Positions 11,872-51,630 of a DNA stretch of 64,000 bases are shown piece by piece. Position 1 is the stretch's first letter; each line of letters opens with the position of its first letter. The translations under genes and the position numbers were made by a program. This DNA comes from Elsinoe ampelina. Lineage: Eukaryota. The DNA lies in the NCBI GenBank assembly GCA_010093995.1, contig ML992502.1, positions 382,760-446,759 on the forward strand. Reading direction: 5' to 3'. The notes under the pieces are model-generated. The model had not been told where the DNA came from. It ran no database searches and was given only the letters and a program-made list of their open reading frames with translations.

Positions 11872-12567
11872 ACGACTTGCCTGCCCGCATCTTCCTTCAA
11901 GACATAGCTTGGCGACCAAGGTATAACATTGATGGCCAGCAAATACGCTTGGAAACAACACGATAAACACAGTACCCACGAAACCCAACTTCAGCACTTT
12001 ACCTTTCTCACCGACATAGCACCCATTGCACATTTCCAAGACTCAGACGATGGAGGGCGCTGGAAGTCCCAATGAGACCCATGGCAAAAGAGATAGCCCT
12101 TGATAAATTCATGAATCATCTACCTTGATCTGTGCTTGATGGCTGCCTGACCGGGTTGCCGGTTTGATGTAACTACTTAACACACACGCATGCCCACGTG
12201 AGCATGCTGTGTTGCATGTCTCAAGTAATTGCAAAGATGCAAATTTCTGTCTGTCGCAATCTGATAACACCAAACGCTCGTGCATGTTGAAGGTCAAGCG
12301 TCCATGATCACATGCGGCCGCAAAGGCGCGGGCAGGTGACGCGCCTTGGCACACGGCGATACATTCACAACCTCCGAAGCTGCACCTTTCGCAAACAATC
12401 ACACTTACGCGATACCACAAACAACGACCCAAGCTCCTCGTATTCCCATAAGCATCCCCTTCACTCTATCCCATCGGCCATAATCTCCAGCACCCTCAAC
12501 ACCGCCGTCACCATTGAGTTCAACCCATCCACCCACACGAGACCAAGACTATGCCCCCCCACCCCAA

Positions 12568-15500
12568 ATGTCCCTAACCCTCCACCACGCCCACACAGGG
12601 CACTCCTACCCTCTCGACCCCTCGCGCCTCCCTAACCTCGACGCCCTACGCTCCCACCTCGTCTCCCTCCTCGCCATCACACCGAAACACCAGGTGCTGC
12701 TCACGGCGAAAGGGAAGAGCGTACGGCCACAGTCTCTCCTCACAGAGCCGGAGCTGTTCCTCTTCGATGCCGCGCTGTTGGATCCCGGGATCGGGGGGAG
12801 CACGGGGAGTTTGAGGGGTAGTTCCGTGGCGGCGCAAGGACAAGGGCAGGGACAGGGAGAGGTGTTTCTCCCGGATGCGGAGGAGGTGGATGCCGGACAC
12901 GTGCCGGATGTGATTACGCGGCAGGACAGTTTGGTTGCGTGGAGGGGGTTGTTCGGGGAGAGGTTGGCGTGGGCGAAGGAGGTGGCGGGGAGGTGTGGAG
13001 AGGTGGCGAGGTTGGCGGAACGGGCGGAGGGGGAGAGGGGGGTGATTGCGCGTGGGCTGGGGGTGGCGTTGGAGAGTTTGAAGATACACATCAGGGGGGC
13101 GGAGACGAAGGTTGAGGGGGCGGGGAGGTGGGTGGAGGAGATTGTGAGGGATCAGGAAGGGAAGTTGAGGGGGTGGGAGGGGCATTGGGGCGTGTTGAAG
13201 GGGGTGAGGGGGAGGGGAGATTTTGCTGGGTTTGTGCAGGGTGTGGGCACAGGGAAGAAAGAGGAGGTGACACTCGCGGATATCTTGACGAGGCAGAAGG
13301 TGGAGGGAGCGGCGAGGCAGGCGGAGGGTGTTCTCCTTGGCCTGCAGAAGAAGGTGGGTGACATCAAAGCTACACTGGGTCAACTGCAGAAGCGGGGCGA
13401 TGAGCTCTGGGCCGCTGCGGAACAGATGCAACTATCTTCGATGGAGGCCACGGAGCCGGGCAAGCTGATGGAGGAGATTGACATCATTCTTCGCAAGATC
13501 ACGAGCGACGACAATCACGTTTCGACGCTCCCGAAGACGGCGCAGAGTGTCAGTCAAGCGAGCAAGATGGCGCTGCTCCACACCAGGAACTATCTGCCCA
13601 ACATGCAGGAGTATGCTGCGGAGATGAACGATCTGGTGCGCAAGGCTGTACAAAGCAGGAACAACACCGCGGAGACGTGTTTGCAGCACATGCAAGCTCT
13701 TTCTCGTATAGAAAGCGGCTTGAGCCGAGTGCTCATGGATATAAAAGCTCTGGACATGCCGGCCGATGATCAAGCAGCTTTCGCAACGCTGAACGTGGTG
13801 TCCCGCCTTCCATTCGTCTATGGTTCTCTGCTCGTCGAGGCGGTTCGACGAAAGGAATGGATTGACAAGATGAAGCGCGACTCCGGGACTCTCGCCGAAG
13901 AAATGGCGACCTACCAAGAAGAGGAATCGCGCAGACGTCAACGCTGGTTGAACAGCATAGACGATGTCATCCGGCCGGAACTGGCAAAGAGCAAAGCGCT
14001 CGGCATAGAAGTCAACCTGCAGACAGAGACGGAGCAATGGCCGATCGTGTCCAGACAGGAGATCCAGGAGTACATCGACCAGCTGGTTCGCATCAGGTAT
14101 CCAGAAGAGGTTACCCAGGAATTGACGAATGCGCTTCGCACGTTAGACCATCCTACCAAGAAGCAGATTAAGCACGCCAAAGCTTTCCGGAATGGCAGCA
14201 TGCACGAAGCTGCATTTGGGACGACCTCACTTGCGCTTCGCGGAGAGGACGACTTCAAAGTTATCCGTGATGCCAACGCCAAGCTTGAAGAAGAGCTGCG
14301 AGGACAGAAATCACGTGTTCGCAAGCTAGAAGATCTCCTCCACCGCCAGACTACCGTCTCACGCGCTGCGAGCGGCGACGTCTTCATTCCACAGATGGAG
14401 CTGGTCAGCCGGCCTGACAGCCCGAATATCGGCGGTCGACGGATCAGCGAAGATCTCAGACCTGGTTCCAGCAGAAGCCGACGCACGAGCAGCACCCAAG
14501 CTGGAGAGGAGAAGCGACTCGCAAGACGAATTGTGATGCTCGAAGCTGAAGTGCAAAGTCAGAGAGAACTTCGAGAGGGGATCGAGCGTGAAGCCAGGGA
14601 CCGAGCCGAGGCCCATGCGAGAGGTAAAGAGGAGATCATGGAGGCTGAGAGTGTCAAGAAAGACATTATGCAGAACATGGAAGCTCAACAGAGAGAGTTT
14701 GTAGCCGAGCGAAGAGGCCTGGAGCAGGAATTGACGAATGTCAGAGGAAGGTGCGAAGAGTTGGAGGATGAGCTCGACAGGATTCTCGGCAGCAGAGACG
14801 CCGAGAAGAGTGGCGTCGAAGGGAGAGTGAAGCAGCTTGAAGAAGAGCTGAAGAAGAGAGAGGTAGAGAAGACCAAGAATGTCGAAGAGATGAGGGGTAA
14901 TTGGCTCGCTGAGCAGGAGCGCAGCAGAATGCTGGAAGACCAGCTCAGAGACGCCATGGCAGCCAAGGAAGAGGCAGACGTCAAGATCAAGAGGCTACAG
15001 GCATTGGCTGAGCAGCAGAAGCAGGCCGAGCAGGAGAACTTGGCCGCACTTTCAGCTGTGCATATGCACCTTTCGCCTGGGACAGAGACGCCAGAGAAGT
15101 ATACCTCACTGGTTGTAGCACTGGAAGATCTAGCCCGACGCTCGGCGGCTCATGTCAAGGATCTTGCTGAAGCAGTCGCTTTAGCCAAGTCCGAGAATGA
15201 GTCTCTGCTATTGCAGCACCAGGTACAGACTACAGAGTTGTCGGAGACACGCAAGAAGCAGTCTGATGCCGAGGATGAATTGGCACGCATGCAAGAGCAG
15301 GTCTCTTCGGGGAATGCAAAGGCAGAGTCTCTCTCTTCGCAACTGGACGCCGAGCGTGAGCAACTCAAGTCGCTACGGAGCAAGTTTGCAGAAGGAGAGA
15401 CTGGAGCAGACTCACTGCGTCAACGAGTCGAAGAGCAAGAGCGGGAAGTCGGTCGACTCAGTGAACAGCTGGCAGAAAGCAAATCGCATGTCAACTCGCT

Positions 15501-16866
15501 GGATGTCGAGCTCATGCGAGTACAGAACAAGCTCAATGCTGCGACTGCCACTGCCGAGTCCGCACAAAATCGCCTCGACGTCCGGTCAGCTCGCGCAAAG
15601 GACCTCTCCCAACGTCTCTTCGCCCAGAACGCGCGTCTGTTGCGCCTGCTGGAGAGTCTCGGATTCGCCGTGTCCCACAACAATGGTAACATGGTCATCG
15701 AACGTGCCAGCAAGGTCGGCGCCTCTACCACCCTCACCGAACCAAGCATGTTCCTCCAACGCACCGTCTCCCTCACCTCCCCACCAACAACCCGCAAGAC
15801 CTCAAGCGCCCTCCCTCAAACCCTCTCCTCCCCGCCATCCCCTACCTCCCTCTCCTTCCTCCACTGGCCCGACGCCTCCTCCCCCGCATCCGAAGAAACC
15901 CTCTACACAGCCTTACAATCCCACCTCTCCCTCTTCAACACCGACACCTTCTCCGACGCCCTCGCCAAACGCCTCCGCGACTTCGAATACACGGCCCGCA
16001 AATTCCGCCTCGAAGCCCGCACCGCCTCGACAAAAGCCGCCCGCTTCGCCACAGAAGCACACACCAAGCTCGCCGTGCGCGATTTCAAAGAAGGCGACCT
16101 CGCCCTCTTCCTCCCCACCAAAGGCAAGGCAGTCGGCGCCTGGGCCGCGTTCAACATCAACTCGCCCCACCATTTCCTGCGCGAAAGGGAAGGCATGGCG
16201 CTCGGTCGTCGCGAGTGGCTCGTTGCTCGCATCCAGAAAGTCGAGGAGCGGGTGGTGGATCTCGGCCGCAGTCTCCGCGTCGAAGACGGGGGGAGCGTGC
16301 GTAGCGTCAAGACCGGCGGACAAGGTCAGGCTGAAGGAGACAAGGACAGGGAGGAGTGGCTTGACAGCGAGAATCCCTTTGACCTCTCCGACGGATTGAC
16401 GTGGTACCTTGTTCATGCTACTGAGGAGCGCACGGGTGCACCTATCATGCCTGGCGCGGGCAAGGTGACTGTGCAGGGGAGTCTGGAGAGCGCGAGGGCG
16501 GAGAAGGCGGGACGGACGACGGGAGGGGAAGGCGAGGGGAGGGGGGTGAAGGATCTCAAGGAGAAGTTGGGGAAGAGTCTGGAGAGTAGGAGGAGTAGTT
16601 CGACGAGTAAACGCAGTGGGAGCGCGAGTGTCAAGGGGTTGCCGATTGCCGGTGCCGCAGGGCAGGCACAGGGGGTGGGGTCAGGGAGTCCGAGGGTGGA
16701 GCAGTCCGGGCTAGGTGCGGTGGGGGTGAGTGTGTCCCCTGCGAGGGAGAGTGAGGTCGGGAGTCCTGGGGCAGGGGTGGGGCAGGGATTGGGCGTGCGA
16801 AGTGCCTCGTCGACGGCGGAGGAGGAGCAGGATAAGGTCCGTACCGATCTGCTTTTTGGGCCGTGA
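12568..16866 (+). CDS. ATG11: Autophagy-related protein 11 (selective autophagy scaffold)
   Basis: N-terminal MSL..HAHTG, long coiled coils, and a C-terminal Atg11 domain (KLAVRDFKEGDLALFLPT..WAAFN..NPFDLSDGLTWY). Confidence 0.92.
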   Translation: MSLTLHHAHTGHSYPLDPSRLPNLDALRSHLVSLLAITPKHQVLLTAKGKSVRPQSLLTEPELFLFDAALLDPGIGGSTGSLRGSSVAAQGQGQGQGEVFLPDAEEVDAGHVPDVITRQDSLVAWRGLFGERLAWAKEVAGRCGEVARLAERAEGERGVIARGLGVALESLKIHIRGAETKVEGAGRWVEEIVRDQEGKLRGWEGHWGVLKGVRGRGDFAGFVQGVGTGKKEEVTLADILTRQKVEGAARQAEGVLLGLQKKVGDIKATLGQLQKRGDELWAAAEQMQLSSMEATEPGKLMEEIDIILRKITSDDNHVSTLPKTAQSVSQASKMALLHTRNYLPNMQEYAAEMNDLVRKAVQSRNNTAETCLQHMQALSRIESGLSRVLMDIKALDMPADDQAAFATLNVVSRLPFVYGSLLVEAVRRKEWIDKMKRDSGTLAEEMATYQEEESRRRQRWLNSIDDVIRPELAKSKALGIEVNLQTETEQWPIVSRQEIQEYIDQLVRIRYPEEVTQELTNALRTLDHPTKKQIKHAKAFRNGSMHEAAFGTTSLALRGEDDFKVIRDANAKLEEELRGQKSRVRKLEDLLHRQTTVSRAASGDVFIPQMELVSRPDSPNIGGRRISEDLRPGSSRSRRTSSTQAGEEKRLARRIVMLEAEVQSQRELREGIEREARDRAEAHARGKEEIMEAESVKKDIMQNMEAQQREFVAERRGLEQELTNVRGRCEELEDELDRILGSRDAEKSGVEGRVKQLEEELKKREVEKTKNVEEMRGNWLAEQERSRMLEDQLRDAMAAKEEADVKIKRLQALAEQQKQAEQENLAALSAVHMHLSPGTETPEKYTSLVVALEDLARRSAAHVKDLAEAVALAKSENESLLLQHQVQTTELSETRKKQSDAEDELARMQEQVSSGNAKAESLSSQLDAEREQLKSLRSKFAEGETGADSLRQRVEEQEREVGRLSEQLAESKSHVNSLDVELMRVQNKLNAATATAESAQNRLDVRSARAKDLSQRLFAQNARLLRLLESLGFAVSHNNGNMVIERASKVGASTTLTEPSMFLQRTVSLTSPPTTRKTSSALPQTLSSPPSPTSLSFLHWPDASSPASEETLYTALQSHLSLFNTDTFSDALAKRLRDFEYTARKFRLEARTASTKAARFATEAHTKLAVRDFKEGDLALFLPTKGKAVGAWAAFNINSPHHFLREREGMALGRREWLVARIQKVEERVVDLGRSLRVEDGGSVRSVKTGGQGQAEGDKDREEWLDSENPFDLSDGLTWYLVHATEERTGAPIMPGAGKVTVQGSLESARAEKAGRTTGGEGEGRGVKDLKEKLGKSLESRRSSSTSKRSGSASVKGLPIAGAAGQAQGVGSGSPRVEQSGLGAVGVSVSPARESEVGSPGAGVGQGLGVRSASSTAEEEQDKVRTDLLFGP

Positions 16867-17055
16867 GGGATGTCTGTCGAATTTATCCGCGGGGAATGTA
16901 GGATCGGGATAGGGTCACATTTCATTCTTCATACACGACGAGTGGAATCGATCCTTTCTCGTCCTCTACCCCTCGCTTCGCCAGACAGTCGTCGCCCCAC
17001 CCTGTTCAATGCTTTTGCTTTCGTCTGTTCCATGCACCCCTTCACACCCCCTCCA

Positions 17056-17084
17056 TCCCTCCCTCCCTCCCTCCCTCCCTCCCT
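17056..17084 (+). repeat. (CCCT)n microsatellite
   Basis: Tandem tccc/ccct run directly visible. Confidence 0.85.
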
Positions 17085-17128
17085 GCTTCCGTCCTCTATT
17101 CGGGTCCACCCCACTAACACCCTCCCAG

Positions 17129-17719
17129 CTCCTGCCCCCAACACCCTTCCCCCCCACCACCACAGGCCTCTCCCCCGCCACCCTCATCTCCCCCATCAAA
17201 CCCCCGACCTCCCGCCCCGGCTCTTCCAGCGGGGTCGCAAACCTGCACGTCCCTTCCCCTGCACTCCCCTTGCCGCGCCAGAGCCCCGAGCTAGGCCCTG
17301 ACGTCGACCCGGTAGACGACGCGGTGGCGAGCGCGATGAATACTAGTTTGAGACTGAGGACGCCGAAGAAGCAGACACCTATTACTCAGAGAGGGGAGGG
17401 GGGTGGGGAGGGGGTGGAGGGAGGAGGAGGGGGGGCGGATACAGGGGCAGGGCCTGGCTTGGGCCTGAGGGAGAGTAGATCCGTGCGGGCGCTGAGGGGG
17501 AATTTGTTAGCCGGGGCGAGTCCTGTCAAGGGGACGGGGGGTTCGGGGAAGAGTGTGAGGGGGTCGTCTGCGCACGGGACGGGAGGGGAGAAGGGGGTGG
17601 GGGAGGAGGGGAGTCCGGTGAAGGCGCCGGGGCAGGGGCATAAGAAGAAGAATAGTCTGCCTGGGTGGAGGAGTTTGTGGAGTGTGGATTATGGGATTGA
17701 GGGGGGCGGGGAGGGTTGA
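17129..17719 (+). CDS. ATG11: Probable alternative terminal exon of ATG11 (intron 16837-17128)
   Basis: Phase-0 donor AAG|GTCCGT, branch CACTAAC at 17112-17118 and acceptor CCTCCCAG at 17128 are in frame with an open frame ending ..GWRSLWSVDYGIEGGGEG*. Confidence 0.6.
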   Translation, partial: LLPPTPFPPTTTGLSPATLISPIKPPTSRPGSSSGVANLHVPSPALPLPRQSPELGPDVDPVDDAVASAMNTSLRLRTPKKQTPITQRGEGGGEGVEGGGGGADTGAGPGLGLRESRSVRALRGNLLAGASPVKGTGGSGKSVRGSSAHGTGGEKGVGEEGSPVKAPGQGHKKKNSLPGWRSLWSVDYGIEGGGEG

Positions 17720-18460
17720 GCTGCGGGGGGGGAATGGGATGGTCGAGTTTTTTTGGTTTGGGGTGGCATTTTTAGCGAAGGGTGATAGGGACGTGGCCGG
17801 CACGGTTTTGGGTGGGGGCATGCTCGGATGCAGTAATGCTAATGACTATTCTTGAATACCTTCACGGCTGGGAAAAGCTTGTGATGTCTCGGCTGCATTA
17901 CGAGTGCGCTATTGTCCTCTAGCTCTAACGCCATCCATGCGTGCCAAAGGGCAGGAGACGATTCCCTCCCTACGCAATGCAATAGGCTTGCAGAAACAAA
18001 GCCTTCCTCGCCAGGCTTCCTATCCAGCCAGCCGGCGTGCCTCGACGGGATCGATTCCACCGCCAGTGCCATGTACCTGTCATGTCTGTGTGGTGCCGTG
18101 GCCCCAGTCTACAACTCCCGGCTGAAGTGAAGTGGTCGATTAAATTTAACAAAAGAAACTCGTTGCAGTGATCGCTTGCTTGCTTCCCTGCGACCTGCAT
18201 GATCGTGTCGAGAACAAATGGAGAGAGGAAGCAGTGCCGCTCGTTGGCTGCCACCAAAGTACCGTGGAGACTGCCTCAGATACGATGGCGAAGCTAAAGA
18301 CATGCCGCACGCCCAGTCTTGCAGGTCTGGGGACATTGCTGGTTCAGATGTCGAGGCATAACATCGCTCCTGATACACTTCCGACGGGTGCATTCCGCTG
18401 CAGCCGGCATTTGACCTCCTTCAGCTTTGTTCTCGCGATTCATCGGATTTCCGTCACGCT

Positions 18461-26122: not shown

Positions 26123-26208
26123 TACCGAGCCTGTCGCATTGAATATAGAAATTGATACCCCTGATGCGTAATGGATCCATCAAGACGTGATGACAATGCT
26201 CTCTCTTT

Positions 26209-37760: not shown

Positions 37761-39001
37761 ATGGCCTCTACCACCGGCTCTGTCCCCTCAGGAGCCACCT
37801 ACACCATCGTCCCAACAAAAGATGCACAAGTAGCACAAGAACTATGGTGGAGCCACATGCTCGAACTCGGCTGGGTATGCTGCATTTGATCCTATATCTA
37901 CATATCGTACAACGCAAAACCAAAATCCCCCGTCATATCCCGACCTACACATTTCCACTTCTTCAGCCCTTCCACAAGTCCGACCTGACCCCTCCAGAAT
38001 CGCTCTTACTACGACCTCGCCTCGTACATCTCCGCCACCAACTCGCGGGGCTTTCTCCTCCTCTATCCAGATGAGTCGGATAGGCCACAAGGTCACGTCA
38101 TGGCGACTGTGTTTGACAACCAGACTGCGTGGGTGAGTCCCTCCTTCCTCTTTCTCTCCAGCTCCCGTACCACAAGCAATCCAGATCCCAGGCGGGGTTC
38201 TCAGGCTGACGGGAGAAGATAGCAATGTTCATCACCGCCCCCTCGGTGAGACGGCACGGTTTCGGAAAACCTTTATTCCAAGCCGCGATGGATGATCTGG
38301 TGACGCGTGACGTGAAGTACTGCGGCCTGGACGCGGTGGCGGAGCAAGTGCCTACTTATGCGCGGAGGGGGTTTGTGGAGTCCGAGAAAGGGAGGGTGAG
38401 GTGTATGCTTCGGCCTTTTGGGGAGAATGTGCCGGAGGTGGATGTGCCTAGTGGGTGGAGGGTCAGGGGTGTTGAAGAAGGAGATCTTGCTGGGTTGGTA
38501 AGGAGTGAGAGACGGGTGATTGGATTCGAGAGGAAGGGGTTGTGGTCGAGAGATTACCTTCGCCGGCCGGATGTGGAAGGGTTGATTGTCCTGGACGAGT
38601 CGAGAGGGGGAGATGATGCATTGCTGGCTTGGGTGTTTGTGAGGAGATCTCCGGGAGGGGCGCGGCTAGGGCCTGTGTATGCTCGAGATGCAGCAGCAGC
38701 AAAACTGGCTATTGCGAAGGGGCTGCAACTCGCCACTCCAGAGTTCGTCAAGACTCGTCCGCTCCCAGGTGTGGAGATGAGCAACCAACCCGCAGACGAG
38801 ATCCGAAGAGCGGCAACGACCATAGTCGAGGTATCATTGGCAAATCCCCAGGCGCTCGAGCTCTTCGAAAGTCTTGGATTTGCCAACGCCGGAGTCGACT
38901 ACCATCGAATGTGGTTGAACGGATCCATACCACCTGAGCAAGCAGAAGGTGGTGTTTCAGAGAAAGAGATGTTTGCCATCTATGACGCCGCGATAGGATA
39001 G
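37761..39001 (+). CDS. GNAT-family N-acetyltransferase; exons 37761-37874, 37998-38132, 38219-39001
   Basis: Spliced ELGW|NR..TAW|IAMFI, acetyl-CoA motif RRHGFGKPLF, LDAV.EQV..Y.RRGF, and a YitH-like RLGPVYA. Confidence 0.82.
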
Positions 39002-40470: not shown

Positions 40471-40793
40471 AGACGTCTAAGATATCTATTACCTATAAGC
40501 CAAAGGTTTCGAAAGGTGCTATATGAGTTCCGATATATTTCGAGATCAGAGATTTGCCGGATACTCTTGTGTAGCTCATAAGTGTGTGGAAGAAAATTGA
40601 ATGCTACAATTCTTTACAGGCCATCGAAGCATGAGCTTGGCATCATAAGAACCTATCACTGTAACGATCGAGGTATACGGGATCATCTAGTATCGTAACC
40701 ATATCGGTATCGCGCTGGTCACTTTCACTCCATGTCGATTCACCAATGCAAAATGTAGTGTCTCTCATAACTCGTCTACATCTATGCTACATC

Positions 40794-42308
40794 TCAACCT
40801 TCTTCCGCGTCCATATTATCCCTCCCAGCACCACGCGCACCACCTCTGTGCCTCAAACCACCCTTTCCACGGGCCTTTTTCTTCTCATCAAAGTCTTTAA
40901 TCTCTCTAATAGCAACTCTTTGAGCCTCGCTGACTTTGTCTGCATACACCATGACTTCATCCGCAATCATCTTCTTCTCATCTAGTTTTCGTCCCAATGC
41001 CTTTTCGATCCTGAGATACACCTCGACATCGTATTGTGTGACTAGCGAGATCGCCATGCCGCTTTTACCCGCTCGAGCTGTTCGTCCAACACGGTGTACG
41101 TATGTCTTGCTGTCTGTGGGTAGGTCATAGTTTACCACCAAGTCGACTGAAGGTATATCAAGACCTCTCGCGGCGACATCTGTAGCGACAAGAATGTCTC
41201 GACTGTGAGCTTTGAACTTGTTTAGAGCTCCAAGACGCTTGTCCTGGGAGAGTTGACCGTGGAGAGGAATCGCCCCAAAGCCTAGAGCTCGCAGAAGGAA
41301 AGCCAGGCGTTGTGTTTCGTGCACTGTTCTGGTGAAGAGGATGGTCGACTGACCCATGTGGTCGGACAAGAGTGAGACAAGGTAGATGTCCTTGTGCTTG
41401 TGTGGGATGAACGAATATGACTGCAGTAGTGTCGCCACCGTCTGATATGATGACGACGAAATGCTGATTCTGAGTGGGTTGGAAAGGGAGGCTCGCTGCA
41501 ACGACTCGACCTTGGATGACATGGTAGCAGAGAACAAGTATGTCCTTCGATCGCGCGGTAACACGCGAAGGATCTTGTCGAGAATAGGACCGAAATCCAG
41601 GTCGAGAAGACGATCTGCCTCATCCATGACGAGATACTTTAGTGTCCGCAAAGAGAAGCCCTTCGTGTTCTGCAAATGGTCCAGCAGTCGTCCCGGTGTG
41701 GCGACAATGATATGAGGCTTCTTTGCCAGGGCAATCGCTTGGGTGACCATGTCCATGCCACCGACCAAGACTGCACACTTGACCGCGATTAGGGATCCAA
41801 GTGCCTCAAATTGCTTCCCAATCTGATCCGCCAGTTCTCTGGTGGGCGCAAGAACCAACCCAAACAGCGCCTGGGGCTTGTCCATGAGCGCCTGAAGGAT
41901 GGGCAACGCAAATGCAGCCGTCTTGCCAGACCCAGTCTCCGCGAGTCCGATCAGATCTCTGCCTTGGAGAGCTGGCGGGATGGACTCTGCCTGGATTGGC
42001 GTTGGAGCTTTGTATCCCAGGCTCTCGCATGCTTCGCACAGCGAGTCGATGATACCGAGATCCTCGAAAGTACATGGAGCGACAGCAGCATCTTTCGCAA
42101 CATCGCTACCACCATCCGTGCTTGGTATTGTGGGTTGCTCTTCCTCTTCCGCTCCGCTGTCTACTCCGGAGAAGTCGCTTTCCTCATTCGAGTCTGGGAC
42201 AGGCGGCGGTGACGGCTCCACCTCTGGTGACCGCTTCTTCCTCTTGATGACAGCGTCTCCGTTTTTGGACAGATTCGAGTCCAGCTTTCTCTTCTTCAGT
42301 CCAGCCAT
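40794..42308 (-). CDS. RRP3: DEAD-box rRNA helicase Rrp3
   Basis: Q motif, [21 protein letters not shown] and [10 protein letters not shown], plus Rrp3-type [10 protein letters not shown] and LQRASLSNP. Confidence 0.93.
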
Positions 42309-43833: not shown

Positions 43834-45478
43834 GGCGCTCCTACTATTCCAGCCGTTTCAACGAAGGGGTCTTTCCGTGAAGGATGGGGCATCTTTGCCG
43901 ACCACATCAGCGACCTGATGGATGAGTACGAGGACTCATTTCTTCATGCTGGGTCTTACAGATGGCCCCCTACCACTGCTCAATGGGATGATGAGCGCCC
44001 ATTGCGATGGCTCCAGCTCTTGGTGGATGATACCCTCACGAGACGACATGAAGCAGATTCAGGCAAGCTAGCATCTAGGCCTGCAGATCATGCCTTCTAG
44101 GTCCGCAACACGCGATCAATCCTCGTGCTACGGGATATTCCTGATCAGCGCTGTCAAAGTAACGTGGTCAAGAAGACAGCATGCTAGCCGTTGCATTAAT
44201 GCCCGTCCTGTTCACTACAAGGGTGGGTAGAACCCGGACAACATGGACGATGCGTAAGGCTCCGCGGGATGGCCATGTGCCGTAAAAGACATGGTCAGTG
44301 GCGTACAGTACATTTGCCGCTAGAAATACAGGACAGTAGCCAAGGAGAATAGACAAAACGTCCTTCATTGATTCGCAATCAGCACCGCAGCAGCCACAGT
44401 GGTCACGACTGGTGGGCGAAACCCCGGAACAATTCCTCCGAGCTCAACGCTGTACTGGTATAGGACTACTTGGTCGTGATTCAGAGAGCAGGACGTTATA
44501 GCCAAAGTGGTAGGAAACATCTCTGCCATCGATAGGCCCTGATCTCGAACTCAATCTGAACCAGAGATGCGGGAAATGTCAAGCATGCGCAACGGCAACG
44601 GCAATTGCGACAGCAAGGCGTGATTGGCCGCGGAGTCTGGCAGGGTGGGATGAGGTTGGAGACAGTTGAAGCCATGTCTTGACAGGGAGCGGTTCCTGGC
44701 TGCTTACTGTAAGAATGAATGGTTGTTGAAGACGTTGACAGTCAGCTGTGGAGACGGAACCACAAACGTTTCCCTACCTCAATTCAACCACGCTTGCTCT
44801 TTCATCGCAATCCATCAACAATACATTCATTGTCAACATCAGTGTCTGAACGATTCGATTGAATTACCACTGGACATCATGGAATGCGAAAGACAGCAGC
44901 CCCACTTCACTATAGCGAGAGCAAAAGTCGCTCGATCTACAGCTACAGATATGCCCTTTCGATGAAGGTCGAATCAAGGTTGTGGCTCAATCTTCTAGCA
45001 AATAAGCAGCTAACCGTCAACGACTCAAATGACCTTTAACAAGTTCACCGGACTGCCAACACAGGGTGAACAGTAGCTTAATGGCCAAATCTAGGTTGGT
45101 AACTATCACCGTTTCACCGTCCCATTACCTTGTCTTCCTACCGTTGGACCTTATTCAGACTTGCATCTCCTCTGTCCCGTGTTTTCCATGCGTGTATAGG
45201 CTCTCGATCTCGAAAGACCGTCGTTACAATGGTCGTCGCTCTGCCGGGTTAATAGGCTTCACCGTACAACTGTAATGTCGAGACCGGAGACTGCCGTCCA
45301 ACCTCATCCAGCATCCAAAGCAGACTTACGACCACGTACATACCAGCCAGTCCAGATATATAAGCCGACATGGCTGCTCATCATCCAGTTTCTGAATCAG
45401 TGCCGGACACTGGAAGCTATCTAGACGAATACCTTTCAGCCCTCCACCCAACTAATCATCAGCAACACACTCTCAGCA

Positions 45479-48433
45479 ATGGCAGATCGTTTCTCCAAGT
45501 CGGCGGCCCTCATGGGTCTGCTGGTCCCATTTGTCCACGCAGCTCCTGTGGACCAAGTCGCTGCTCCCGCGACTTGCTCTGCTGCTGCCACCTCGATCGC
45601 CTCTGCCCTCAAGGCCAACCCGACAGCCGATGCACTGTGTGCTAAGCTTCTCAACCTTGACAACCGTGTTGTCACTACCACTGTCACCCCTGACACTGGT
45701 TTCACCTCCACCACTGTGGTACCACTTGTGACAGACACCCTCACTGTCACTGCACCGACCTCTCTGGTCACGGTTACCGCCACCGTCGAGACCTGTACCG
45801 AGTTGCAGAAGCGCGCCGCTCCCACCAACATCCGCAAGGCCATCAAGAGCAAGGCCATCAAGAGCAAGGCCAAAAGCAAGCTTGCCAGCAAGGTCAAGAG
45901 CGCCAAGGGCTCAAAGATCACCAAGCTGCCCAAGGTCACCGGCAAGAAGTCCAAGAAGGCCGGCATCAAGACTGCGAAGAACAACCTTGCCACCAAGGTC
46001 AAGAGCGTCAAGGGTACCAAGAAGGTTCTCCCAACCACTTCAGCCGGTCACAAGAAGAAGGTCGTCAGCAAGGTCAAGTCGGCAGCTTCCAAGATCGCCT
46101 CCAAGGTCAAGAGCGTCAACGGTGCTTCCATCACCTTCGGTGCTGGCTCTGGTATTGCTCAGGGTACCAAGGTCTCTGCTGGTGTCCCCGGTGTGATCAC
46201 TGCCTCTGCTGAGATCGGTGTCACTCAGACCATCTCCATCTCCGGCAAGGTCTACGTTACTGTCATCACACCATCGGTCCGCCCTACCATCTCTTCGGTC
46301 TTCAACGGTATTCGCACCATTCAGCCTCCTGCTGTCACCACCCCGGCTCCCAACTTCGACCTGCTCTCCTGCAAGTCCGCCCCTGCTGAGCTTCAGGCCA
46401 ACCCTTGTGAACTGATCGGACAGGCCTGCGGTTGTGCCAGCCTTCCTGCTAGCCAGGCTATCACTGTCACAGCTTTCCCCGCCAGTGTCCCTACCATCAC
46501 TCGCTACAACAGCATCGCCATCACCTACACCTCCGTTCCTCTTGCCTCCACTACCGTCACCATCACCGCTACTGGCTGCCCTTCGGTCCCTCAGCCGACC
46601 GCTGGCTCTGGTGATTCCAACCCACCCCAGCCAGGTGATGACGACCCGGCCGACCCTGAGGACGATGGTGATGACAACGATGGCGATGACAACGATGGCG
46701 ATGACAACGATGGCGATGACAACGATGGTGATGAGGACGAAGACACCGAGGAAGAGAACGCCCCCACTACCCGCCAGGCCGTTGTTGCTCCCACTCCAGC
46801 TGTCTCCACCTCTGCCCTGACCACTCCTGCCCCTGCCGTCCCCACCGCCTGCGACAACTGGGGTGTTGAGTGGGCTGTCTACAGCATTGCCAACTCCATC
46901 ATGGGTAACCAGAAGCGTCAACTCCCCATCGGCATCGACACTGGTGTCGGCAGCTCCGGCAACGGTGTCGCCAATGGTGGCGTTTCCATCTACACTAGCG
47001 AGATCAAGGCTACTGCTTCCGCCGCAGCCGCTGGTGCTCGCAGCTCCGCCGTCGCCATTGTCACCACTGTCTCCGGCAAGGTCGTCACTCTTACCAGCTA
47101 TGTCGCCGTCCAGGCTACCAATGCTGTCAGCTCTGCCAACTCTCTCGGTGGCTTCCTGACGTCTGTCGCTGGCGCTGCTCAGGCTTCTGCTGCTGCTGGT
47201 GTCTCTTCTCTCCGCGCGGATGTCAATGGCCAGGTCTCTTCCGGTATCTCCAATGCTGGTGCGATCCGCGCTTCTGCCACCTCGATCGTCGGTGATGTTC
47301 GCGCCTCTGCTACATCCATCGTCGGTGCTGCTCAGGCTTCCGCTGCTGCTGGTGTCTCGTCTCTTCGTGGTGATATAAACGGCCAGGTCTCTTCCGGCAT
47401 CTCCAACGCTGGCGCCATCAGAGCCTCAGCCACCTCGATCGTCGGTGATATTCGCGCCTCGGCTACCTCAATTGTTGGTGACATCCGCTCCTCGGCCATT
47501 TCCATCGTTGGTGATGCTCAGGCTTCTGCCAATGGCCTCCGCAGCTCTGTCATCGCTGGTGCCGGTGCTGCCACCTCCGCCATCCGCGCCTCTGTCACCT
47601 CAATCGTCAACGATGTCCAGCAGTCTGCTGGCGCCATCCGCTCATCTGCCATCTCGATCATCGGTGATGCTCAGGCCTCAGCCGGTGGTCTCCGCAGCTC
47701 TGGTATCTCCACCGCCGGTGCCATCACCTCCGCTGCCCGAGGCACCGCCACCTCCATCGTGAACGATGCTCAAGCTACCGTCTCTGGCGTCCGCGGCTCT
47801 GCCAACGCCGGTGTTGCCGGCGCCCAGAGCACCATCTCCTCCATCCAAGCCGCCGCCACCTCCCTCCGCGGCGAGATACCCGCTCAAATCGCCTCCGCCC
47901 GCGCCGCCGTCCAGACCACCATCCTCGGCGTCCAATCCGACGCTCTCGCCCGCCTCACCCCCGTCGTCTCCGGCATCTCCGGCGGCGCCGACAACGCCAA
48001 AGACACCGCCACATCCGCCCCCAGCGTCGTCGACGCCCTCAAGACCAACGGCACCGCCCTCGTCCAACGTGCCTACCTCCTCGCCCCCGAAACCGGCACG
48101 TACACCTTCCTCCTCAAGTCCGCGGCCGACCAGGCCCTCCTCTGGGTCGGCGCCGCCGCCACCCGCGCTTTCTCCGACGCCAACGTCGTCTGCGTCGCCA
48201 ACCTCCTGACTCAGGGAACGTGCTCGTACGTCGTCGATCTCCAGCAGGGCGATTACCTGCCCTACAAGGTCCTTCTTGAGCACGGTACCGGCAAGTTGAA
48301 CGACTTTGACTTTACTGTCTCGGGTCCTGGGGGGAACATCATTCAGAACAACGTCAATGTCATGCCGCAGAATGTGGTCCGCTTCGGGTGCAGTGAAGAT
48401 GCGGTTATGGCGCCGGTTTTGGCGAGGCTGTAG
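45479..48433 (+). CDS. Secreted repeat-rich adhesin/flocculin-like protein with a C-terminal PA14/GLEYA-like domain
   Basis: Signal peptide, Thr/Val-rich stalks, KR sites, internal repeats, and C-terminal RAYLLAPETGTYTF..ADQALLWVG..GDYLPYKV..V.FGC. Confidence 0.75.
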   Translation: MADRFSKSAALMGLLVPFVHAAPVDQVAAPATCSAAATSIASALKANPTADALCAKLLNLDNRVVTTTVTPDTGFTSTTVVPLVTDTLTVTAPTSLVTVTATVETCTELQKRAAPTNIRKAIKSKAIKSKAKSKLASKVKSAKGSKITKLPKVTGKKSKKAGIKTAKNNLATKVKSVKGTKKVLPTTSAGHKKKVVSKVKSAASKIASKVKSVNGASITFGAGSGIAQGTKVSAGVPGVITASAEIGVTQTISISGKVYVTVITPSVRPTISSVFNGIRTIQPPAVTTPAPNFDLLSCKSAPAELQANPCELIGQACGCASLPASQAITVTAFPASVPTITRYNSIAITYTSVPLASTTVTITATGCPSVPQPTAGSGDSNPPQPGDDDPADPEDDGDDNDGDDNDGDDNDGDDNDGDEDEDTEEENAPTTRQAVVAPTPAVSTSALTTPAPAVPTACDNWGVEWAVYSIANSIMGNQKRQLPIGIDTGVGSSGNGVANGGVSIYTSEIKATASAAAAGARSSAVAIVTTVSGKVVTLTSYVAVQATNAVSSANSLGGFLTSVAGAAQASAAAGVSSLRADVNGQVSSGISNAGAIRASATSIVGDVRASATSIVGAAQASAAAGVSSLRGDINGQVSSGISNAGAIRASATSIVGDIRASATSIVGDIRSSAISIVGDAQASANGLRSSVIAGAGAATSAIRASVTSIVNDVQQSAGAIRSSAISIIGDAQASAGGLRSSGISTAGAITSAARGTATSIVNDAQATVSGVRGSANAGVAGAQSTISSIQAAATSLRGEIPAQIASARAAVQTTILGVQSDALARLTPVVSGISGGADNAKDTATSAPSVVDALKTNGTALVQRAYLLAPETGTYTFLLKSAADQALLWVGAAATRAFSDANVVCVANLLTQGTCSYVVDLQQGDYLPYKVLLEHGTGKLNDFDFTVSGPGGNIIQNNVNVMPQNVVRFGCSEDAVMAPVLARL
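46670..46729 (+). repeat. Four 15-bp tandem repeats (GATGACAACGATGGC) encoding (DDNDG)4
   Basis: Directly visible. Confidence 0.9.
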
Positions 48434-48915
48434 ATTGGGAAAGAAGGGGATGATTGGGATTTGTGGGAGGGATAATTGATAATGCCCATTGATTGGGATA
48501 GTATATAGTACATAGTAGTAATAGTAATACAATAATTTACCTCCTCGGATACACTTTGGGTGCCATTTGCTTTGACTTTATACTCATGGCCAAATCGGCG
48601 TGACACTCTCCAGTCTAAATGAGTGATTTCATGGCCTTGTCAATACCACTTGGTACTATCAAGACCAGCCTGGCGGTCCGGCAGGTTCTGCACTCTGTAG
48701 AATACCGTGCAGCATGGTGTCGATTTCTACTAGAACTTCTATCAAAGAGGCTACACATGCTTCGTCGTTGACTTATTAGCCAGCATCCGGCAACGCTCAC
48801 TCCATGCATGATCATCACTCGATCTCTCACACCCCTGAACCAACCTACCCACCATCCCGATAGACCCCTCATCCACTCCCCTGTCCCTTCCAATCGATAG
48901 TCCCCCCTAATCCGA

Positions 48916-51630
48916 TCAAAGCTTCGTACAAACCCACGTACTCGCGTACATATTCACCCTAACCAAGTCAGCACACTCCCTCCCATCCCCTCCCATCCCC
49001 AAGGGATATAACCGTCTACTCACCGATCCACAACCGTCCCGGGAGGGCACCTCCCCCCTACCCTCTTACACCCAAACCCCCCCTCCTCAAACACCGATAT
49101 ATACCACGGCCTCAACCCCGCACTCCTGAGCAGCACCCTCCCGCCCCTCTTCAACGCCCTCCTGACCACCCCCACCTGCCTCCCCGCCTCCTCCCCCCCG
49201 GGGTCGAACCAGTCCATACTATCCATCAAAACAGCAATCGTCAGCGTCTCGTCCTGCATGCGGCCGAAAACCTCGGCCAGTTCGTCAGTGTGTATCCTCA
49301 GCCCGTCGAAAGCACGGGGGCAAGACAGGCGGAGGTGGGACTTGGGGGAGAGGTAGGTTGGGTGGCATCGTGGGGTGTAATGGCCGAGTAGGCAGAGGAG
49401 GTAGTAGTGGTTGTCCTCCGAGAGGAGGGATTGGTGCGCGATGGGGTCGAGGGTTTGTACGCCGTATTCCCAGATTGCTTGGCCTGATTTAATCCCGGCT
49501 GCGGGAGAGGGCAAGGTGGGGGGTGTAGGGGAGGGGGAGGGGGAGAGGGAGGGGATGGAGGCTGGGGAGCGGACGGGGGAGGAGGGCGGGGAGGAGGAGG
49601 GGGAGGAAGAGGGGGAGGAAGAGGCGCCACACGATGAGCCGGGAATTGTTGGGAGAATAGCGGTGGTGGACACGGCATCCTGCGTCGCGAGAAAGTCGGA
49701 CTCGATCATGTCCCTTTGCGCCTGCGGGACGCCGAGGGCTTTCCAGAGAAACTTCTCCGTGCCGACGACGGTGTAGGCGAGGAGGCGCGAGAGGAGGACG
49801 CGGCGGACGCGTTTGGTCCAGATTTCGCGCTGCTCGGCGAGGGTAGGGGCTGAGGCGAGAGCGTGGAGGTCGGCGGTGATGCCGAGGAGGCGGCCGAGGT
49901 AGCGCACGAGGTTGAGGGCGTGGCGGGAGCCGCCGGTGAAGTAGAGACCCGGGGAGGTGGAGGAGAAGATGGTGGGCCCTTTGTGGAGCCAGTAGTCGAA
50001 GGCTTGGGTGGAGAGGTGGGGGGAGAGGTGGTTGATGAGGAGGGAGGTGAAGTCCGGGTGCTTGCCTTCGCCGAAGAGTTTCCAGACGTCTTGGTAGGGG
50101 AGGGCCGTGAAGGCGGCGACTTTGAGTTCGAGGAGGTGGTTTTGATTAGGGTTGAGGTCGACGGCGTGGATTCGTTTCGGCTTTTCGAGGGCGTAGGAGA
50201 GGATGTTGTCGCCGGCGGAGGTGATGGCGAGGACCACGTCTTCTGAGGTGATCTTAAGCAGTCGGGCGTCGGCGCGGGCGTCTTCCCAGGTGAAGGCATA
50301 GATATATTCGTCGCCGAACTGCTTGTGCTTTTGTAGAGACTCATCATAGTACACACGCCAGTGATGTTGTTGGTACCAGGCCGAAGGAAGTGGTAGAGAT
50401 GCTGCAAGGTTGACAATGGCGGACTCGTAAGCCTTGGAGTGGCGCTCGAGAGAAGACGACCTGCGGGACTTTTGTGTCTTCTTACGCTGGACATCGAGAG
50501 CTGAGATGAATGGTGACTCTGTCACAGCAGCATCAATAGCTGCCAGGTTCGACAGAGAAGACTTTGTCTGCTTTGCGCAACCAATCCAGATGTAGTATGG
50601 AATGCGGAAGCCGAAGAAATGGTTGCGGGCGTTTGTGCTGAGAATGGTGCCGAACTTGTATTCGAGGTAGTCCTGTGGTATATTAGTGAGACTCTTTCCC
50701 TGTGTCAAAGTGCCTACTCACCCTTCGTGCAGCCTCCAGATTGACCCTGTCAGCCTCGAACCATGTCCGCCAGAACACTCTGCTGATCCACATACAGTGC
50801 CTATCAATGATGCCACCGGCATAGTTTCGACTCTGGAACTCCACTTGGCTCTGGACATAAAAGTCCACAACACCCATGACTCCGTTCGGCGCCACAAGAT
50901 TTGCCAAAGAGTCGATGACTGGATGAAACTCTGGTATCATGGACAAGCTGTAGCTCATAGTGAGCACATCGGCGTAGACCTTCTTGCCCGCCTCGGCGTC
51001 ATCGTATCCACTTCCACCAAGACTGAAGACCGCCTTGTCTTCGTCCACGCCAGCCTCGTACTCTGCGAGCCTGAATGTCCTTGCGTCCTGGCAGACGACT
51101 CTGACGTTCTTCCAGCCTAGTCTCTCGAATCGTGCCTTGGCTACTTCGCACAAGGAAGGGGAGAGGTCCACCAGATATACGGCGTGGAAGAACTTGTCGA
51201 CGGGTAGGAAAGCCCCCATCTGCTCGATGTTCCACCCTGTACCGCCTCCGACGTCGACCCAGATGGGCTTCTTCGGGAGTGCGCCGCTAGCTGCTTGGTA
51301 TTTCACTTGAGCCGCGACCAAGCCCAGCATGGTCTCACGACCATCGAGGAGTCTGGATCGTGTAGCGTCATAGATACCAGCCTGGCTCTTGTAGAAGCTC
51401 TCCAGGGCGTCCTGCTGGCTGCCCGTGTCGTCACCAGTGTGCGGCTTGAAGAAGCAGTTCCACGCAAAGCGCGAGTAGGTGCGGAAACCAGCGTACACCT
51501 TCTGGATCGTTTCGAGCTCAGTGAACGAGAGGGTGAAGTAAGTGAGGACAACGAGCACAAGAAGGATAGTAGCGAGAGAGATCTGAGGGATCGCAGGCAG
51601 CGACACCCGTGGAAGGGTGAAGAGATCCAT
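48916..51630 (-). CDS. BTA1: Betaine lipid (DGTS) synthase, fused methyltransferase and DUF3419 domains; exons 51630-50722, 50672-49024, 48958-48916
   Basis: QQDALESFY..QA..YDATR, WVDVGGGTG, YIYAFTWED, ITSAGDN, DLNPNQNHLLELK, MDSMDWF and DR|VNMYASTW. Confidence 0.92.

Follow-up and report, generated by a model that had tools for sequence, protein, structure and literature searches.

Transcription units with an extreme, patchy 5'-C/3'-G strand skew in Elsinoe ampelina

Our analysis of a 64-kb stretch of Elsinoe ampelina DNA (hereafter the window) shows that its recurrent flips in strand skew are anchored to transcription units and not to free-standing sites, and that the pattern is an extreme, patchy form of the gene polarity described for fungi. 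We consider transcription-linked, strand-asymmetric mutation or repair the most likely mechanism and would give this reading a probability of roughly 55%. Elsinoe species are plant-pathogenic fungi of the grapevine and sweet-potato scab group, and no literature linking the genus with GC skew was found.

Extent of the skew

In the whole window, 14 blocks are rich in C and 15 in G; they measure 250-675 bp, with an absolute GC skew of 0.4-0.66 and a GC content of 0.51-0.68, and the extremes of GC skew in 400-bp windows are -0.64 and +0.78 (Table 1). The blocks make up ~28% of a 38-kb stretch (10,550 of 37,901 bp), and GC content is higher inside them. Chance is excluded as the source of the skew: absolute values above 0.4 were reached in 57 windows (400 bp, step 100, positions 801-56800) but in none after shuffling, the highest value being 0.27 when single nucleotides were shuffled and 0.39 when 30-bp blocks were (20 shuffles each). 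All 11 C-to-G switch points of a preliminary description of this DNA were recovered at 100-bp resolution, at 12.75, 16.2, 17.3, 27.05, 32.15, 33.3, 35.15, 38.2, 39.65, 48.3 and 49.25 kb, those at 33.3 and 48.3 kb being weak, and two more weak ones were found at 37.2 and 41.05 kb. That C always precedes G, as had been stated, goes too far, since sharp G-to-C steps occur at 16.92, 17.83, 27.79, 32.74 and 48.72 kb, among others, at the boundaries of genes.

Apart from the odd look of the sequence, nothing favours a sequencing or assembly artefact, for example from G-rich read ends, and we give this explanation practically no credence. It is contradicted by the RNA contigs of three other studies (runs X3, X4 and X7), which are correctly spliced and show 0 differences over the skewed blocks (for example, X3 record 12 covers 38218-40580 and X4 record 16 covers 34674-35377), by reading frames that are open and homologous to orthologues, and by the same protein shift in related species. 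Strain differences between the RNA contigs and the window amount to 9 in 15 kb.

Table 1. Skew units and the genes that carry them (window coordinates; blocks given for the + strand)
Feature	Position	Gene strand	C-rich block	G-rich block	Remarks
Skew unit 1, ATG11 5' end	12400-13400	+	12400-12750	12776-13400	Flip ~12.77 kb; C block takes in the 5' UTR and, from the ATG at 12568, 183 nt of the ATG11 CDS
Skew unit 2, within ATG11, end of long exon	15676-16900	+	15676-16150	16200-16900
Skew unit 3, ATG11	16926-17900	+	16926-17290	17301-17900	C block: most of the intron and start of the last exon; G block: remainder of the last exon (to 17719) and 3' UTR
ATG11	12568-17719	+			Exon 12568-16836, intron 16837-17128, last exon 17129-17719
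ATG11 intron	16837-17128	+			GTCCGT...CACTAAC...CAG
Skew unit 4, TPR-protein gene	26500-27790	-	26500-27020	27120-27790
TPR-protein gene	26209 to about 27652	-			Intron 27509-27560
Weaker unit, 3' end of ILV2 (acetolactate synthase)	31500-32700	+		32200-32700
Moderate unit, unnamed spliced gene	32800-33950	-	32800-33100	33400-33950
Skew unit, af470-like monooxygenase gene	34400-35650	+	34400-35050	35200-35650
Weak short unit, small spliced gene	36900-37500	+	36900-37200	37300-37500
Skew unit, GNAT acetyltransferase gene	37600-38700	+	37600-38150	38280-38700	Stop at 39001
Skew unit spanning almost all of BCS1	39000-40400	-	39000-39650	39700-40400
BCS1	38983-40470	-
Weak unit, 3' end of RRP3-like DEAD-box gene	40700-41600	-
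GLEYA-domain adhesin-like gene	45425-48500	+			Moderately C-rich throughout
Skew unit, BTA1 3' half and 3' UTR	48800-50300	-	48800-49250	49290-50300
BTA1	49020-51750 (CDS)	-			Pfam DUF3419 and methyltransferase domain

Silent-site signature

The skew is not lost at fourfold-degenerate sites but is strongest there. C occupies 0.76 of these sites in the pooled C blocks (503 of 666) and G 0.70 in the pooled G blocks (357 of 512), the composition of unskewed genes being A.25, C.29, G.22 and T.24 (n = 2185). On the sense strand, C followed by G reaches 0.54 and 0.69 in unit 1 of ATG11, 0.91 and 0.76 in the af470-like gene, and, in mRNA sense, 0.72 and 0.72 in the TPR gene, 0.81 and 0.82 in BCS1, and 0.74 and 0.68 in BTA1, of which the first 1.4 kb are almost without skew. 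In unit 2 of ATG11, C is at 0.78 and G at 0.03 up to the flip at ~16.1-16.2 kb, after which G is at 0.56. The GLEYA-domain gene has fourfold skews of -0.69 and -0.77 and a G-rich patch of 100-200 bp after its stop codon.

At twofold sites, unskewed genes have a C/(C+T) of 0.61 and a G/(A+G) of 0.64, as compared with 0.94 and 0.33 for C blocks and 0.27 and 0.94 for G blocks; by these ratios, C and G blocks are reverse-complement mirror images of each other, the G-rich strand having an excess of A>G-type and C>T-type differences. The low values, G/(A+G) of 0.33 in C blocks and C/(C+T) of 0.27 in G blocks, contradict pure gBGC. In Zymoseptoria, GC-biased conversion is reported to be absent or extremely weak (PMC5844332). 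The ratio of A to T at fourfold sites changes from 66:36 in C blocks to 41:62 in G blocks (p = 4.6e-4), G being accompanied by T. Purines make up 0.47 of these sites in unskewed genes, 0.78 in G blocks and 0.19 in C blocks, a shift beyond the reach of transitions alone. CpG observed/expected is 0.99-1.00 and the neighbours of the rare base track block composition; this lends no support to RIP or 5mC deamination, from which a CpA or CpG context and AT enrichment would be expected, and GC content is raised, not lowered.

As had been described, the skew also enters introns and UTRs. On its transcript strand the TPR intron (27509-27560) has a C content of 0.65 and a G content of 0.00, the first C block of ATG11 begins 168 nt upstream of the ATG, the BTA1 block extends 220 nt beyond the stop codon, and the G block of ILV2 reaches into the 3' UTR. 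The proteins are altered as well: C blocks encode 14.8/11.6/11.6/8.9% L/S/P/T and G blocks 16.7/9.4/9.3/9.3/8.7% G/V/A/E/R. Selection at the protein level for P/S/T-rich and G/E/R-rich low-complexity segments would produce such shifts, and some affected segments are poorly conserved tails, for example the last exon of ATG11. However, the skew peaks at fourfold sites, is common to introns and UTRs and crosses conserved domains, namely BCS1_N and AAA in BCS1 and ATG17_like in ATG11. The silent-site and intron data contradict this explanation, which we regard as very improbable; the cause lies at the nucleotide level, as originally proposed, and amino-acid composition is carried along by that pressure.

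Position relative to genes and transcript ends

All 13 C-to-G flips lie inside genes, and 11 of the 15 G-to-C steps fall at gene boundaries, the other four being intragenic (Fisher p = 6.7e-5, threshold 0.5; boundaries of five unnamed genes are approximate, being derived from ORFs and RNA contigs). With a threshold of 0.7, 7/7 flips are in genes and 4/5 reverse steps at boundaries. Between 31.4 and 41.4 kb, eight of eight consecutive genes run from C to G irrespective of their strand. In BCS1, the af470-like gene and the last-exon ORF of ATG11, the sense-strand fourfold skew lies between -0.72 and -0.88 over the first half and between +0.43 and +0.80 over the second; in the TPR gene it goes from -0.27 to +0.66. 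The C-then-G order on the + strand is fixed for both gene orientations because the sense strand follows a 5'-C/3'-G rule; the self-symmetry and the occurrence in + and - strand genes noted in the preliminary description thus follow from the rule of McLean and Tirosh (2011).

Block edges coincide with transcript ends. The G-to-C step at 32740 lies next to the ILV2 poly(A) site at 32797 (a poly(A) loose end in run X7), the G block stopping ~100 nt short of this site. RNA contigs end at 34386 for the af470-like gene (C-block onset 34400), at 37517 for the small spliced gene (G-block end 37500) and at 26539 for the convergent Surp gene (left edge of the TPR block 26500). RNA contigs also give the CT..AC introns of the unnamed gene (32938-33067, 33271-33445 and 33655-33851) and the introns of the GNAT gene (37874-37996 and 38132-38217); the small gene has a GT..AG intron at 36941-37088. 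The last 300 nt of the GNAT gene, where it overlaps with the convergent BCS1 transcript, are neutral.

A different reading would make each flip centre a fixed bidirectional site, such as a point of replication initiation, a recombination hotspot within a gene or a divergent promoter inside it, and strand-asymmetric damage or conversion would spread ~0.5 kb each way from there. The C-left/G-right order matches that of origins, and would match that of divergent transcription if the non-template strand were exposed. C and G blocks are tightly coupled in pairs of 1.0-1.5 kb regardless of gene length, skew strength belongs to the block pair and not to the intergenic region, and the three pairs in ATG11 keep their positions across Elsinoe. 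Of the recombination hotspots reported for the Dothideomycete Zymoseptoria tritici, 1435 of 2578 are in exons (PMC5844332). All 13 flips are located within genes, and the reverse steps coincide with the ends of transcripts and the boundaries of genes. This argues against such sites, which we consider quite improbable; the free-standing origins or hotspots first suggested as anchors are not supported. Replication origins fit poorly, as 13 flips in ~38 kb are far too dense and the units span 1.0-1.5 kb, not a replicon. Resection from a break centred on the flip would predict a G-rich followed by a C-rich block, with loss of C to the left, the opposite of what is observed, the + strand left of every flip being C-rich. 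The flip centres have no motif in common above chance level, the best 6-mer being present in 7 of 12 where controls averaged 6.3 and reached at most 8, and no long inverted repeat was found between the block arms (best local scores 23-63). R-loops or G4 structures, which formed part of the earlier interpretation, may still be involved.

Skewed and unskewed neighbours

Strong skew marks about eight genes within the 64 kb; a flat composition at fourfold sites is seen in GlyRS, GCV2, TRF4, Surp, HAD and others. GlyRS, GCV2, TRF4 and Surp have a GC4 of 0.48-0.53 and a fourfold skew near 0; the reported absence of skew from neighbouring genes thus applies to GlyRS, GCV2 and TRF4 but not to RRP3, which has a weak version. 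GlyRS is unskewed (A.24, C.29, G.23, T.24 at fourfold sites) despite a divergent promoter in common with the strongly skewed TPR gene. The blocks are square-edged, skew is no smooth function of distance from gene ends, and distance from the TSS or poly(A) site does not fully explain it in all genes. ATG11, identified by the Pfam ATG17_like and ATG11 domains and by its orthologues, contains three complete C-to-G units around an unskewed 2.3-kb middle (13400-15650; fourfold A.21, C.33, G.24, T.22). The neighbours without skew and the three units of ATG11 therefore leave a component that is specific to the locus.

Conservation in Elsinoe

Judging from protein sequences, block positions are kept within the genus. 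The skew implied by amino acids is present at the same positions of ATG11 in six of six Elsinoe/Sphaceloma proteins (+0.30 to +0.39 in the first G block) and absent in Myriangium and 10 other Dothideomycetes (-0.21 to +0.13). The homologous region to the last exon lies at the C-terminus of Atg11 proteins annotated in Elsinoe. Comparison of BCS1 proteins from related species gave the same genus pattern. Similar gene-sized units, one of them in BCS1, are also found on L001, an unrelated fungal contig from a metagenome (GC 0.43).

Selection on a property of the nucleic acid, instead of a mutation bias, might maintain blocks at such conserved positions. A low G content of the 5' parts could prevent structure in the mRNA or in the non-template DNA, and a high one of the 3' parts could promote pausing, R-loops or G-quadruplexes that aid termination in a compact genome; alternatively, C might be avoided late in transcripts, in line with the CTP-economy idea of McLean and Tirosh. 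An adaptive hypothesis was put forward in their study (PMC3315797), and Ginno et al. (2013; PMC3787257) link the G-skewed 3' ends of human genes to R-loops and termination. In the blocks, 29 canonical G4 motifs occur on the G-rich strand in 9.2 kb, with 0 on both strands in 26 kb of unskewed genes; on the sense strand, the G-rich 3' halves carry 49 G runs per kb as against 6.5-8.1 per kb. The 5' halves alone are predicted to fold weakly, at -0.11 to -0.23 kcal/nt compared with -0.28 to -0.34 kcal/nt for four control genes. However, weak folding and G4 density are an automatic outcome of composition. Predicted folds of whole units consist mostly of pairing between the halves (216-366 of 327-445 pairs; controls 79-87 of 396-448), the opposite of structure avoidance, which counts against selection. 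Moreover, neighbours of similar structure and housekeeping role lack the skew, the affected genes have no common function (autophagy, mitochondrial chaperone, lipid synthase, acetyltransferase), and almost all silent sites are shifted, well above the need of a structural signal. We therefore consider selection rather unlikely.

Relation to known skews

In most fungi, coding strands favour C towards the 5' end and G towards the 3' end, a bias that reaches promoters and UTRs, is seen at fourfold sites and alters amino-acid use (McLean and Tirosh, 2011, BMC Genomics 12:638; PMC3315797). The Elsinoe units share these features. The published profiles are averages across genes, with only a third of Candida albicans genes individually significant, and follow a gradual three-part course of 5' ramp, flat middle and 3' ramp. 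In contrast, within these 64 kb the amplitude is ~0.76 C and 0.70 G at fourfold sites, the skew is on or off between neighbours, edges are square-wave, several units can occur in one gene, and GC content is raised inside the blocks. In that study, AT skew did not vary along genes and showed a positive correlation with GC skew, which served as an argument against deamination, whereas it flips together with GC skew at silent sites in Elsinoe. Given this flip, the process may differ from theirs.

Plants and fungi have an excess of C over G where transcription and translation begin (Fujimori et al., 2005; PMC555766), as does the Dothideomycete Leptosphaeria maculans near its gene starts (Bourras et al., 2012; PMC3411245), and the authors tie it to transcription. 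The sense-strand C excess at gene starts is similar here, but the peaks they describe measure ~100 bp near the start site, whereas the Elsinoe blocks span 350-1000 bp, lie within the CDS and are each paired with a G block. As in Ginno et al. (2013), the sense strand is G-rich at 3' ends and skew changes sign at defined points of the transcription unit.

The polarity of the flips, C-rich to G-rich along the + strand, is indeed that of bacterial replication origins, to which it had been likened, but the scale is ~1 kb instead of a replicon, with one flip per gene and reverse steps at gene boundaries. The 5' ends of human genes are reportedly G-skewed on the sense strand, whereas those of the Elsinoe units are C-skewed. 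Mitochondrial DNA displays an asymmetry linked to the exposure of single-stranded DNA; similarly, the G+T-rich and C+A-rich strands of the units suggest deamination of exposed A and C.

Possible mechanism

The sense strand of a unit is rich in C and poor in G towards the promoter, and the reverse towards the terminator. With transcription-linked, strand-asymmetric mutation or repair, the strand left exposed or unrepaired would accumulate G by A>G and T by C>T changes, along with some pyrimidine-to-purine changes, and would be the template strand in the first part of the unit and the coding strand in the last. R-loops might strengthen the asymmetry, as a hybrid of G-rich RNA and C-rich DNA would be favoured on precisely those strands, and this reinforcement would account for the on/off, square-wave look. 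We infer a mutational rather than a selective cause, the identity of the exposed strand and a possible role of R-loops or antisense transcripts; composition at equilibrium would look alike under a mutation bias and under selection for some property of the DNA or RNA.

It is possible, though doubtful, that a bistable, self-reinforcing strand-asymmetric process is fully 'on' in particular units of ~1-1.5 kb, in Elsinoe and independently in the L001 lineage. One candidate would be R-loops that expose the G-rich strand to deamination and thereby deepen the skew. Silent sites in 'on' units would then be near fixation of a single nucleotide, with neighbouring genes 'off'. The anchors, stable over the divergence of the genus, may be places where internal or antisense transcripts start and end; they would not be merely gene ends, because ATG11 has three units. 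Such a process would make the species a natural high-gain model for fungal gene-polarity skew.

The cause of this polarity was left unexplained by McLean and Tirosh (2011; PMC3315797). The effect in Elsinoe is an order of magnitude more visible and alters the amino-acid make-up of conserved proteins. As it is on or off between neighbours and arose in a single lineage of genus rank, comparing Elsinoe and Myriangium could help to identify the process. The blocks also distort codon-usage and selection statistics and may mislead gene finders. On the opposite strand, they produce long spurious ORFs.

Results

The window is gene-dense filamentous ascomycete DNA, and protein matches place it in Elsinoe (Dothideomycetes, Myriangiales): its BCS1 shares 96% identity with a protein named Elsinoe batatas, and the aligned part of the ATG11 product shows 0.99 identity to a protein named E. 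ampelina. Genes named by Pfam include ATG11, a Surp protein, a TPR protein, GlyRS, ILV2, an af470-like monooxygenase, GNAT, BCS1, an RRP3-like helicase, a Brix protein, a GLEYA adhesin-like protein, BTA1, GCV2, and others. AT-rich islands (GC 0.24-0.36) are present at either end; they lie between genes of normal GC, look like RIP-type isochores and have no adjoining skew blocks.

Between 12.4 and 50.3 kb, the + strand carries blocks of 250-675 bp nearly without G that are followed by blocks nearly without C. Such a pair is called a unit here, the C-to-G switch a flip and the G-to-C switch a step. Using 150-bp windows, blocks of 250 bp or more were called across the whole window, 14 of them C-rich and 15 G-rich. 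In 400-bp windows the skew reaches -0.64 and +0.78, with a GC content of 0.60-0.70 compared to a background near 0.53, and 57 such windows exceed an absolute skew of 0.4, a level that no window attained after shuffling of single nucleotides or of 30-bp blocks (20 shuffles of each kind). Each of the 11 switch points in the preliminary description was recovered at 100-bp resolution, together with two additional weak ones.

The skew blocks are real DNA. Public runs were compared with the window over 26000-41000, and the matching contigs of three runs from three other studies (X3, X4, and X7) are RNA-like, with GT..AG or CT..AC joints and a poly(A) tail; these contigs are unstranded, and their RNA identity was read from splicing and poly(A), not from the run records. 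RNA contigs that cross skewed blocks showed zero differences from the window. Only 9 strain differences were present over 15 kb, not enough to derive a substitution spectrum. Four of these nine differences between the window and the X4/X7 RNA contigs are clustered exactly where the TPR skew block has its outer limit and the convergent Surp transcript contig ends. At another position, X3 and X4 RNA contigs display loose ends and a back-joint running into other C-rich sequence, which suggests that similar C-rich low-complexity stretches occur elsewhere in the genome.

Flips were called without reference to genes, as extremes of the skew difference between adjoining 300-bp arms, and were compared with a gene map built from ORFs, Pfam matches and RNA contigs, in which five unnamed genes have approximate boundaries. 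With about 66% of positions scored as inside genes, all 13 C-to-G flips at a threshold of 0.5 were located inside genes, and 11 of the 15 G-to-C steps were at gene boundaries or intergenic (Fisher p = 6.7e-5). At a threshold of 0.7, the corresponding numbers were 7 of 7 flips inside genes and 4 of 5 steps at boundaries. Eight consecutive genes at 31.4-41.4 kb, four on each strand, all run from C to G on the + strand. Ends of RNA contigs and the block edges beside them are listed in the table. Overlaps of convergent transcripts are neutral in skew, as the final 300 nt of both the TPR and the GNAT gene show. The frames of GNAT (+) and BCS1 (-) overlap at their stop codons, and therefore their transcripts must overlap.

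The preliminary description had inferred a process anchored to particular sites, such as origins or hotspots. Origins at the flip centers would produce the correct polarity, but their density and the anchoring of the pattern to genes do not fit, and no shared motif beyond chance was found at 12 flip centers. The proposal of site-anchored origins or hotspots is thus unsupported.

Positions of features referred to in the text (window coordinates unless stated otherwise)
Feature	Position	Observation
X3 record 12	38218-40580	spans BCS1 flip; zero differences
X4 record 16	34674-35377	spans af470 flip; zero differences
X4/X7 difference cluster	26462-26544	83 bp
X3/X4 loose ends and back-joint	34718-34752	
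ILV2 poly(A) site (RNA contig)	32797	step at 32740
af470 RNA contig end	34386	C-block onset at 34400
Small gene, RNA contig end	37517	its G block ends at 37500
TPR gene, its one intragenic step	26500	convergent Surp RNA contig ends at 26539
GNAT/BCS1 frame overlap	38980-39001	22 nt
Intron	27509-27560	C 0.65, G 0.00
Intron	34627-34673	C 0.51, G 0.06
ATG11 intron	16837-17128	292 nt; stop at 16864-16866 if retained
ATG11 last exon	17129-17719	196 residues
GLEYA-domain gene	45425-48433	C-rich sense strand
AT-rich islands	1-800, 56800-58800, 60000-61200, 63200-64000	
Stop-free ORFs in skew blocks	12606-13431, 15913-16680, 26428-27061, others	130-260 aa
L001 units (contig positions)	4800-6000, 10200-11500, 18800-19800, others	second unit is BCS1

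The skew did not vanish at fourfold sites. Pooled sense-strand C blocks had C 0.76, G 0.09, A 0.10 and T 0.05 (n = 666), and pooled G blocks had G 0.70, C 0.10, T 0.12 and A 0.08 (n = 512); unskewed genes were flat (A.25, C.29, G.22, T.24; n = 2185). Introns defined by RNA joints carry the local skew as well. A nucleotide-level cause therefore stands, and the earlier view that protein-level selection is not responsible was borne out. Amino acids follow the skew, with mostly L, S, P, and T in C blocks and mostly G, V, A, E, and R in G blocks. Sixfold codon families also flip, Arg being encoded by CGN 56 times and by AGR twice in C blocks, compared to 19 and 73 times in G blocks. A comparison of BCS1 with non-Elsinoe orthologues is a weak test of replacement direction, the effect on this conserved protein being small: the net change at codon positions 1 and 2 was in the expected direction in the C-rich block (28 replacements; G -7.0, C +4.4) and not in the G-rich block (35 replacements; G -5.7, C -2.3).

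At twofold sites, G is actively avoided where C is favored, and vice versa. The fraction C/(C+T) was 0.94 in C blocks, 0.27 in G blocks and 0.61 in unskewed genes, while G/(A+G) was 0.33, 0.94, and 0.64, respectively. GC-biased gene conversion cannot cause such avoidance of G in C-favored blocks or of C in G-favored blocks. C and G blocks mirror each other as reverse complements, which also shows in their overall composition. AT skew at silent sites flips together with GC skew (A:T 66:36 in C blocks and 41:62 in G blocks, p = 4.6e-4). No dinucleotide context of the RIP, 5mC or TpC types was found, which excludes RIP and 5mC deamination.

From the proteins and loci compared, the extreme skew appears to be lineage-specific. 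Amino-acid-implied skew was present at the same ATG11 blocks in all six Elsinoe/Sphaceloma proteins (+0.30 to +0.39 in the G block of the first unit), and it was absent in Myriangium and 10 other Dothideomycetes (-0.21 to +0.13). The difference between the C-terminal and N-terminal parts of BCS1 was 0.34 for the window, 0.32 for E. batatas, and 0.30 for E. fawcettii, compared to a mean of 0.09 (sd 0.07) for 103 others. For BCS1 DNA, the half-difference was +0.89 in the window and -0.10 to +0.12 in the 22 other loci measured of the 53 fetched. Two further BCS1 proteins reached 0.38-0.40, one of them encoded on L001, a metagenome contig (GC 0.43) with gene-sized C-to-G units in its DNA, including BCS1 (5'-half skew -0.32, 3'-half +0.32). 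L001 (positions 1-21500) is an unrelated, AT-richer fungal contig; each of its units matches a long ORF, and its ATG11 homologue is P0218.

Among neighboring genes the skew is on/off in character. GlyRS and the strongly skewed TPR gene share a divergent promoter, yet GlyRS is flat at fourfold sites, and GCV2, TRF4, Surp and the 2.3-kb middle of ATG11 are likewise flat. Units are square-edged and 1.0-1.5 kb long, independent of gene length. BTA1 and ILV2 have one unit each, at the 3' end, while ATG11 has three, the third of which covers an intron and the last exon, both assigned by homology to annotated Elsinoe proteins and by a conserved C-terminal motif. This region seems to encode two alternative C-termini, both conserved: with the intron retained the protein ends in '...VRTDLLFGP', and after splicing it gains a last exon ending in '...GWRSLWSVDYGIEGGGEG'. 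Annotated orthologues across Dothideomycetes have either C-terminus, and two Zymoseptoria tritici models have one each. In the GLEYA-domain adhesin-like gene, the sense strand stays C-rich for the full 3 kb (fourfold skew about -0.7, GC up to 0.74) without an internal flip, and the only G-rich sequence is a stretch of 100-200 bp that follows the stop.

Discussion

Coding strands of most fungi favor C at the 5' end and G at the 3' end; this bias enters promoters and UTRs, touches fourfold sites and alters amino-acid use, and its cause was left undecided between mutational and CTP-avoidance hypotheses (McLean and Tirosh, 2011; PMC3315797). An excess of C at gene starts had been described earlier for fungi (Fujimori, 2005; PMC555766), and is also on record for the Dothideomycete Leptosphaeria maculans (Bourras, 2012; PMC3411245). 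The window shares the C-to-G polarity of the sense strand, and under a sense-strand rule genes on both strands read C then G along the + strand. This explains the self-symmetric, always equally ordered appearance that lay behind the idea of origins. By its defining polarity, the pattern belongs with the fungal gene-polarity skew. However, its amplitude is larger, with silent sites near one nucleotide, it is on or off between genes, it comes in square-edged units of 1.0-1.5 kb, three of them in ATG11, and AT skew flips with GC skew, whereas AT skew was uniform in the study of McLean and Tirosh (2011). It is thus an extreme, patchy, and lineage-specific variant with different AT-skew behavior and unexplained restarts inside a long gene. 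A literature search found no paper connecting Elsinoe with GC skew.

On the G-rich strand, the shifts match what increased A>G and C>T would produce. An excess of these two changes is the classical signature of a more exposed or less repaired strand. The fourfold purine excess of 0.78 means that transversions, or selection, contribute too. On this reading, a unit would begin with the template strand exposed and end with the coding strand exposed. Resection from 5' to 3' at a break in the flip center exposes the opposite strands, so its polarity is wrong. Breaks in intergenic regions or gene ends with inward resection would have the right polarity, but were rejected as the main cause since the skew is one-sided at shared intergenic regions (TPR versus GlyRS at 27.8 kb; also at 17.9 and 35.7 kb). 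Inverted repeats or cruciforms were rejected as well: when every C arm was locally aligned to the reverse-complemented G arm of the same unit, scores were 23-63 with at most about 30 matched bases, and no long palindrome joining the arms was found. Z-scores of up to 8.9 against mononucleotide shuffles most likely stem from low-complexity runs of the CCT/AGG type.

What remains after these models is a transcription-linked asymmetry, which we infer to be the most likely explanation. Sense transcription would act on the terminator-proximal part of a unit and an opposite-sense process on the promoter-proximal part, candidates for the latter being a repair regime of the initiation phase or antisense transcripts that terminate there. 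Positive feedback may come from R-loops, as the favored hybrid (G-rich RNA on C-rich DNA) would displace the G-rich strand in both halves; such feedback would account for the on/off, square-wave appearance. Selection on RNA or DNA properties instead of mutation is a possible alternative to a transcription-linked process, and composition alone fits either.

G-run density in the blocks is very high, and 29 G4 motifs occur in 9.2 kb of blocks versus 0 in 26 kb, because of block composition. RNA folding of the units is descriptive only, its result likewise being due to composition. On the opposite strand and in other frames, the skew blocks give stop-free ORFs, which could be misread as genes.
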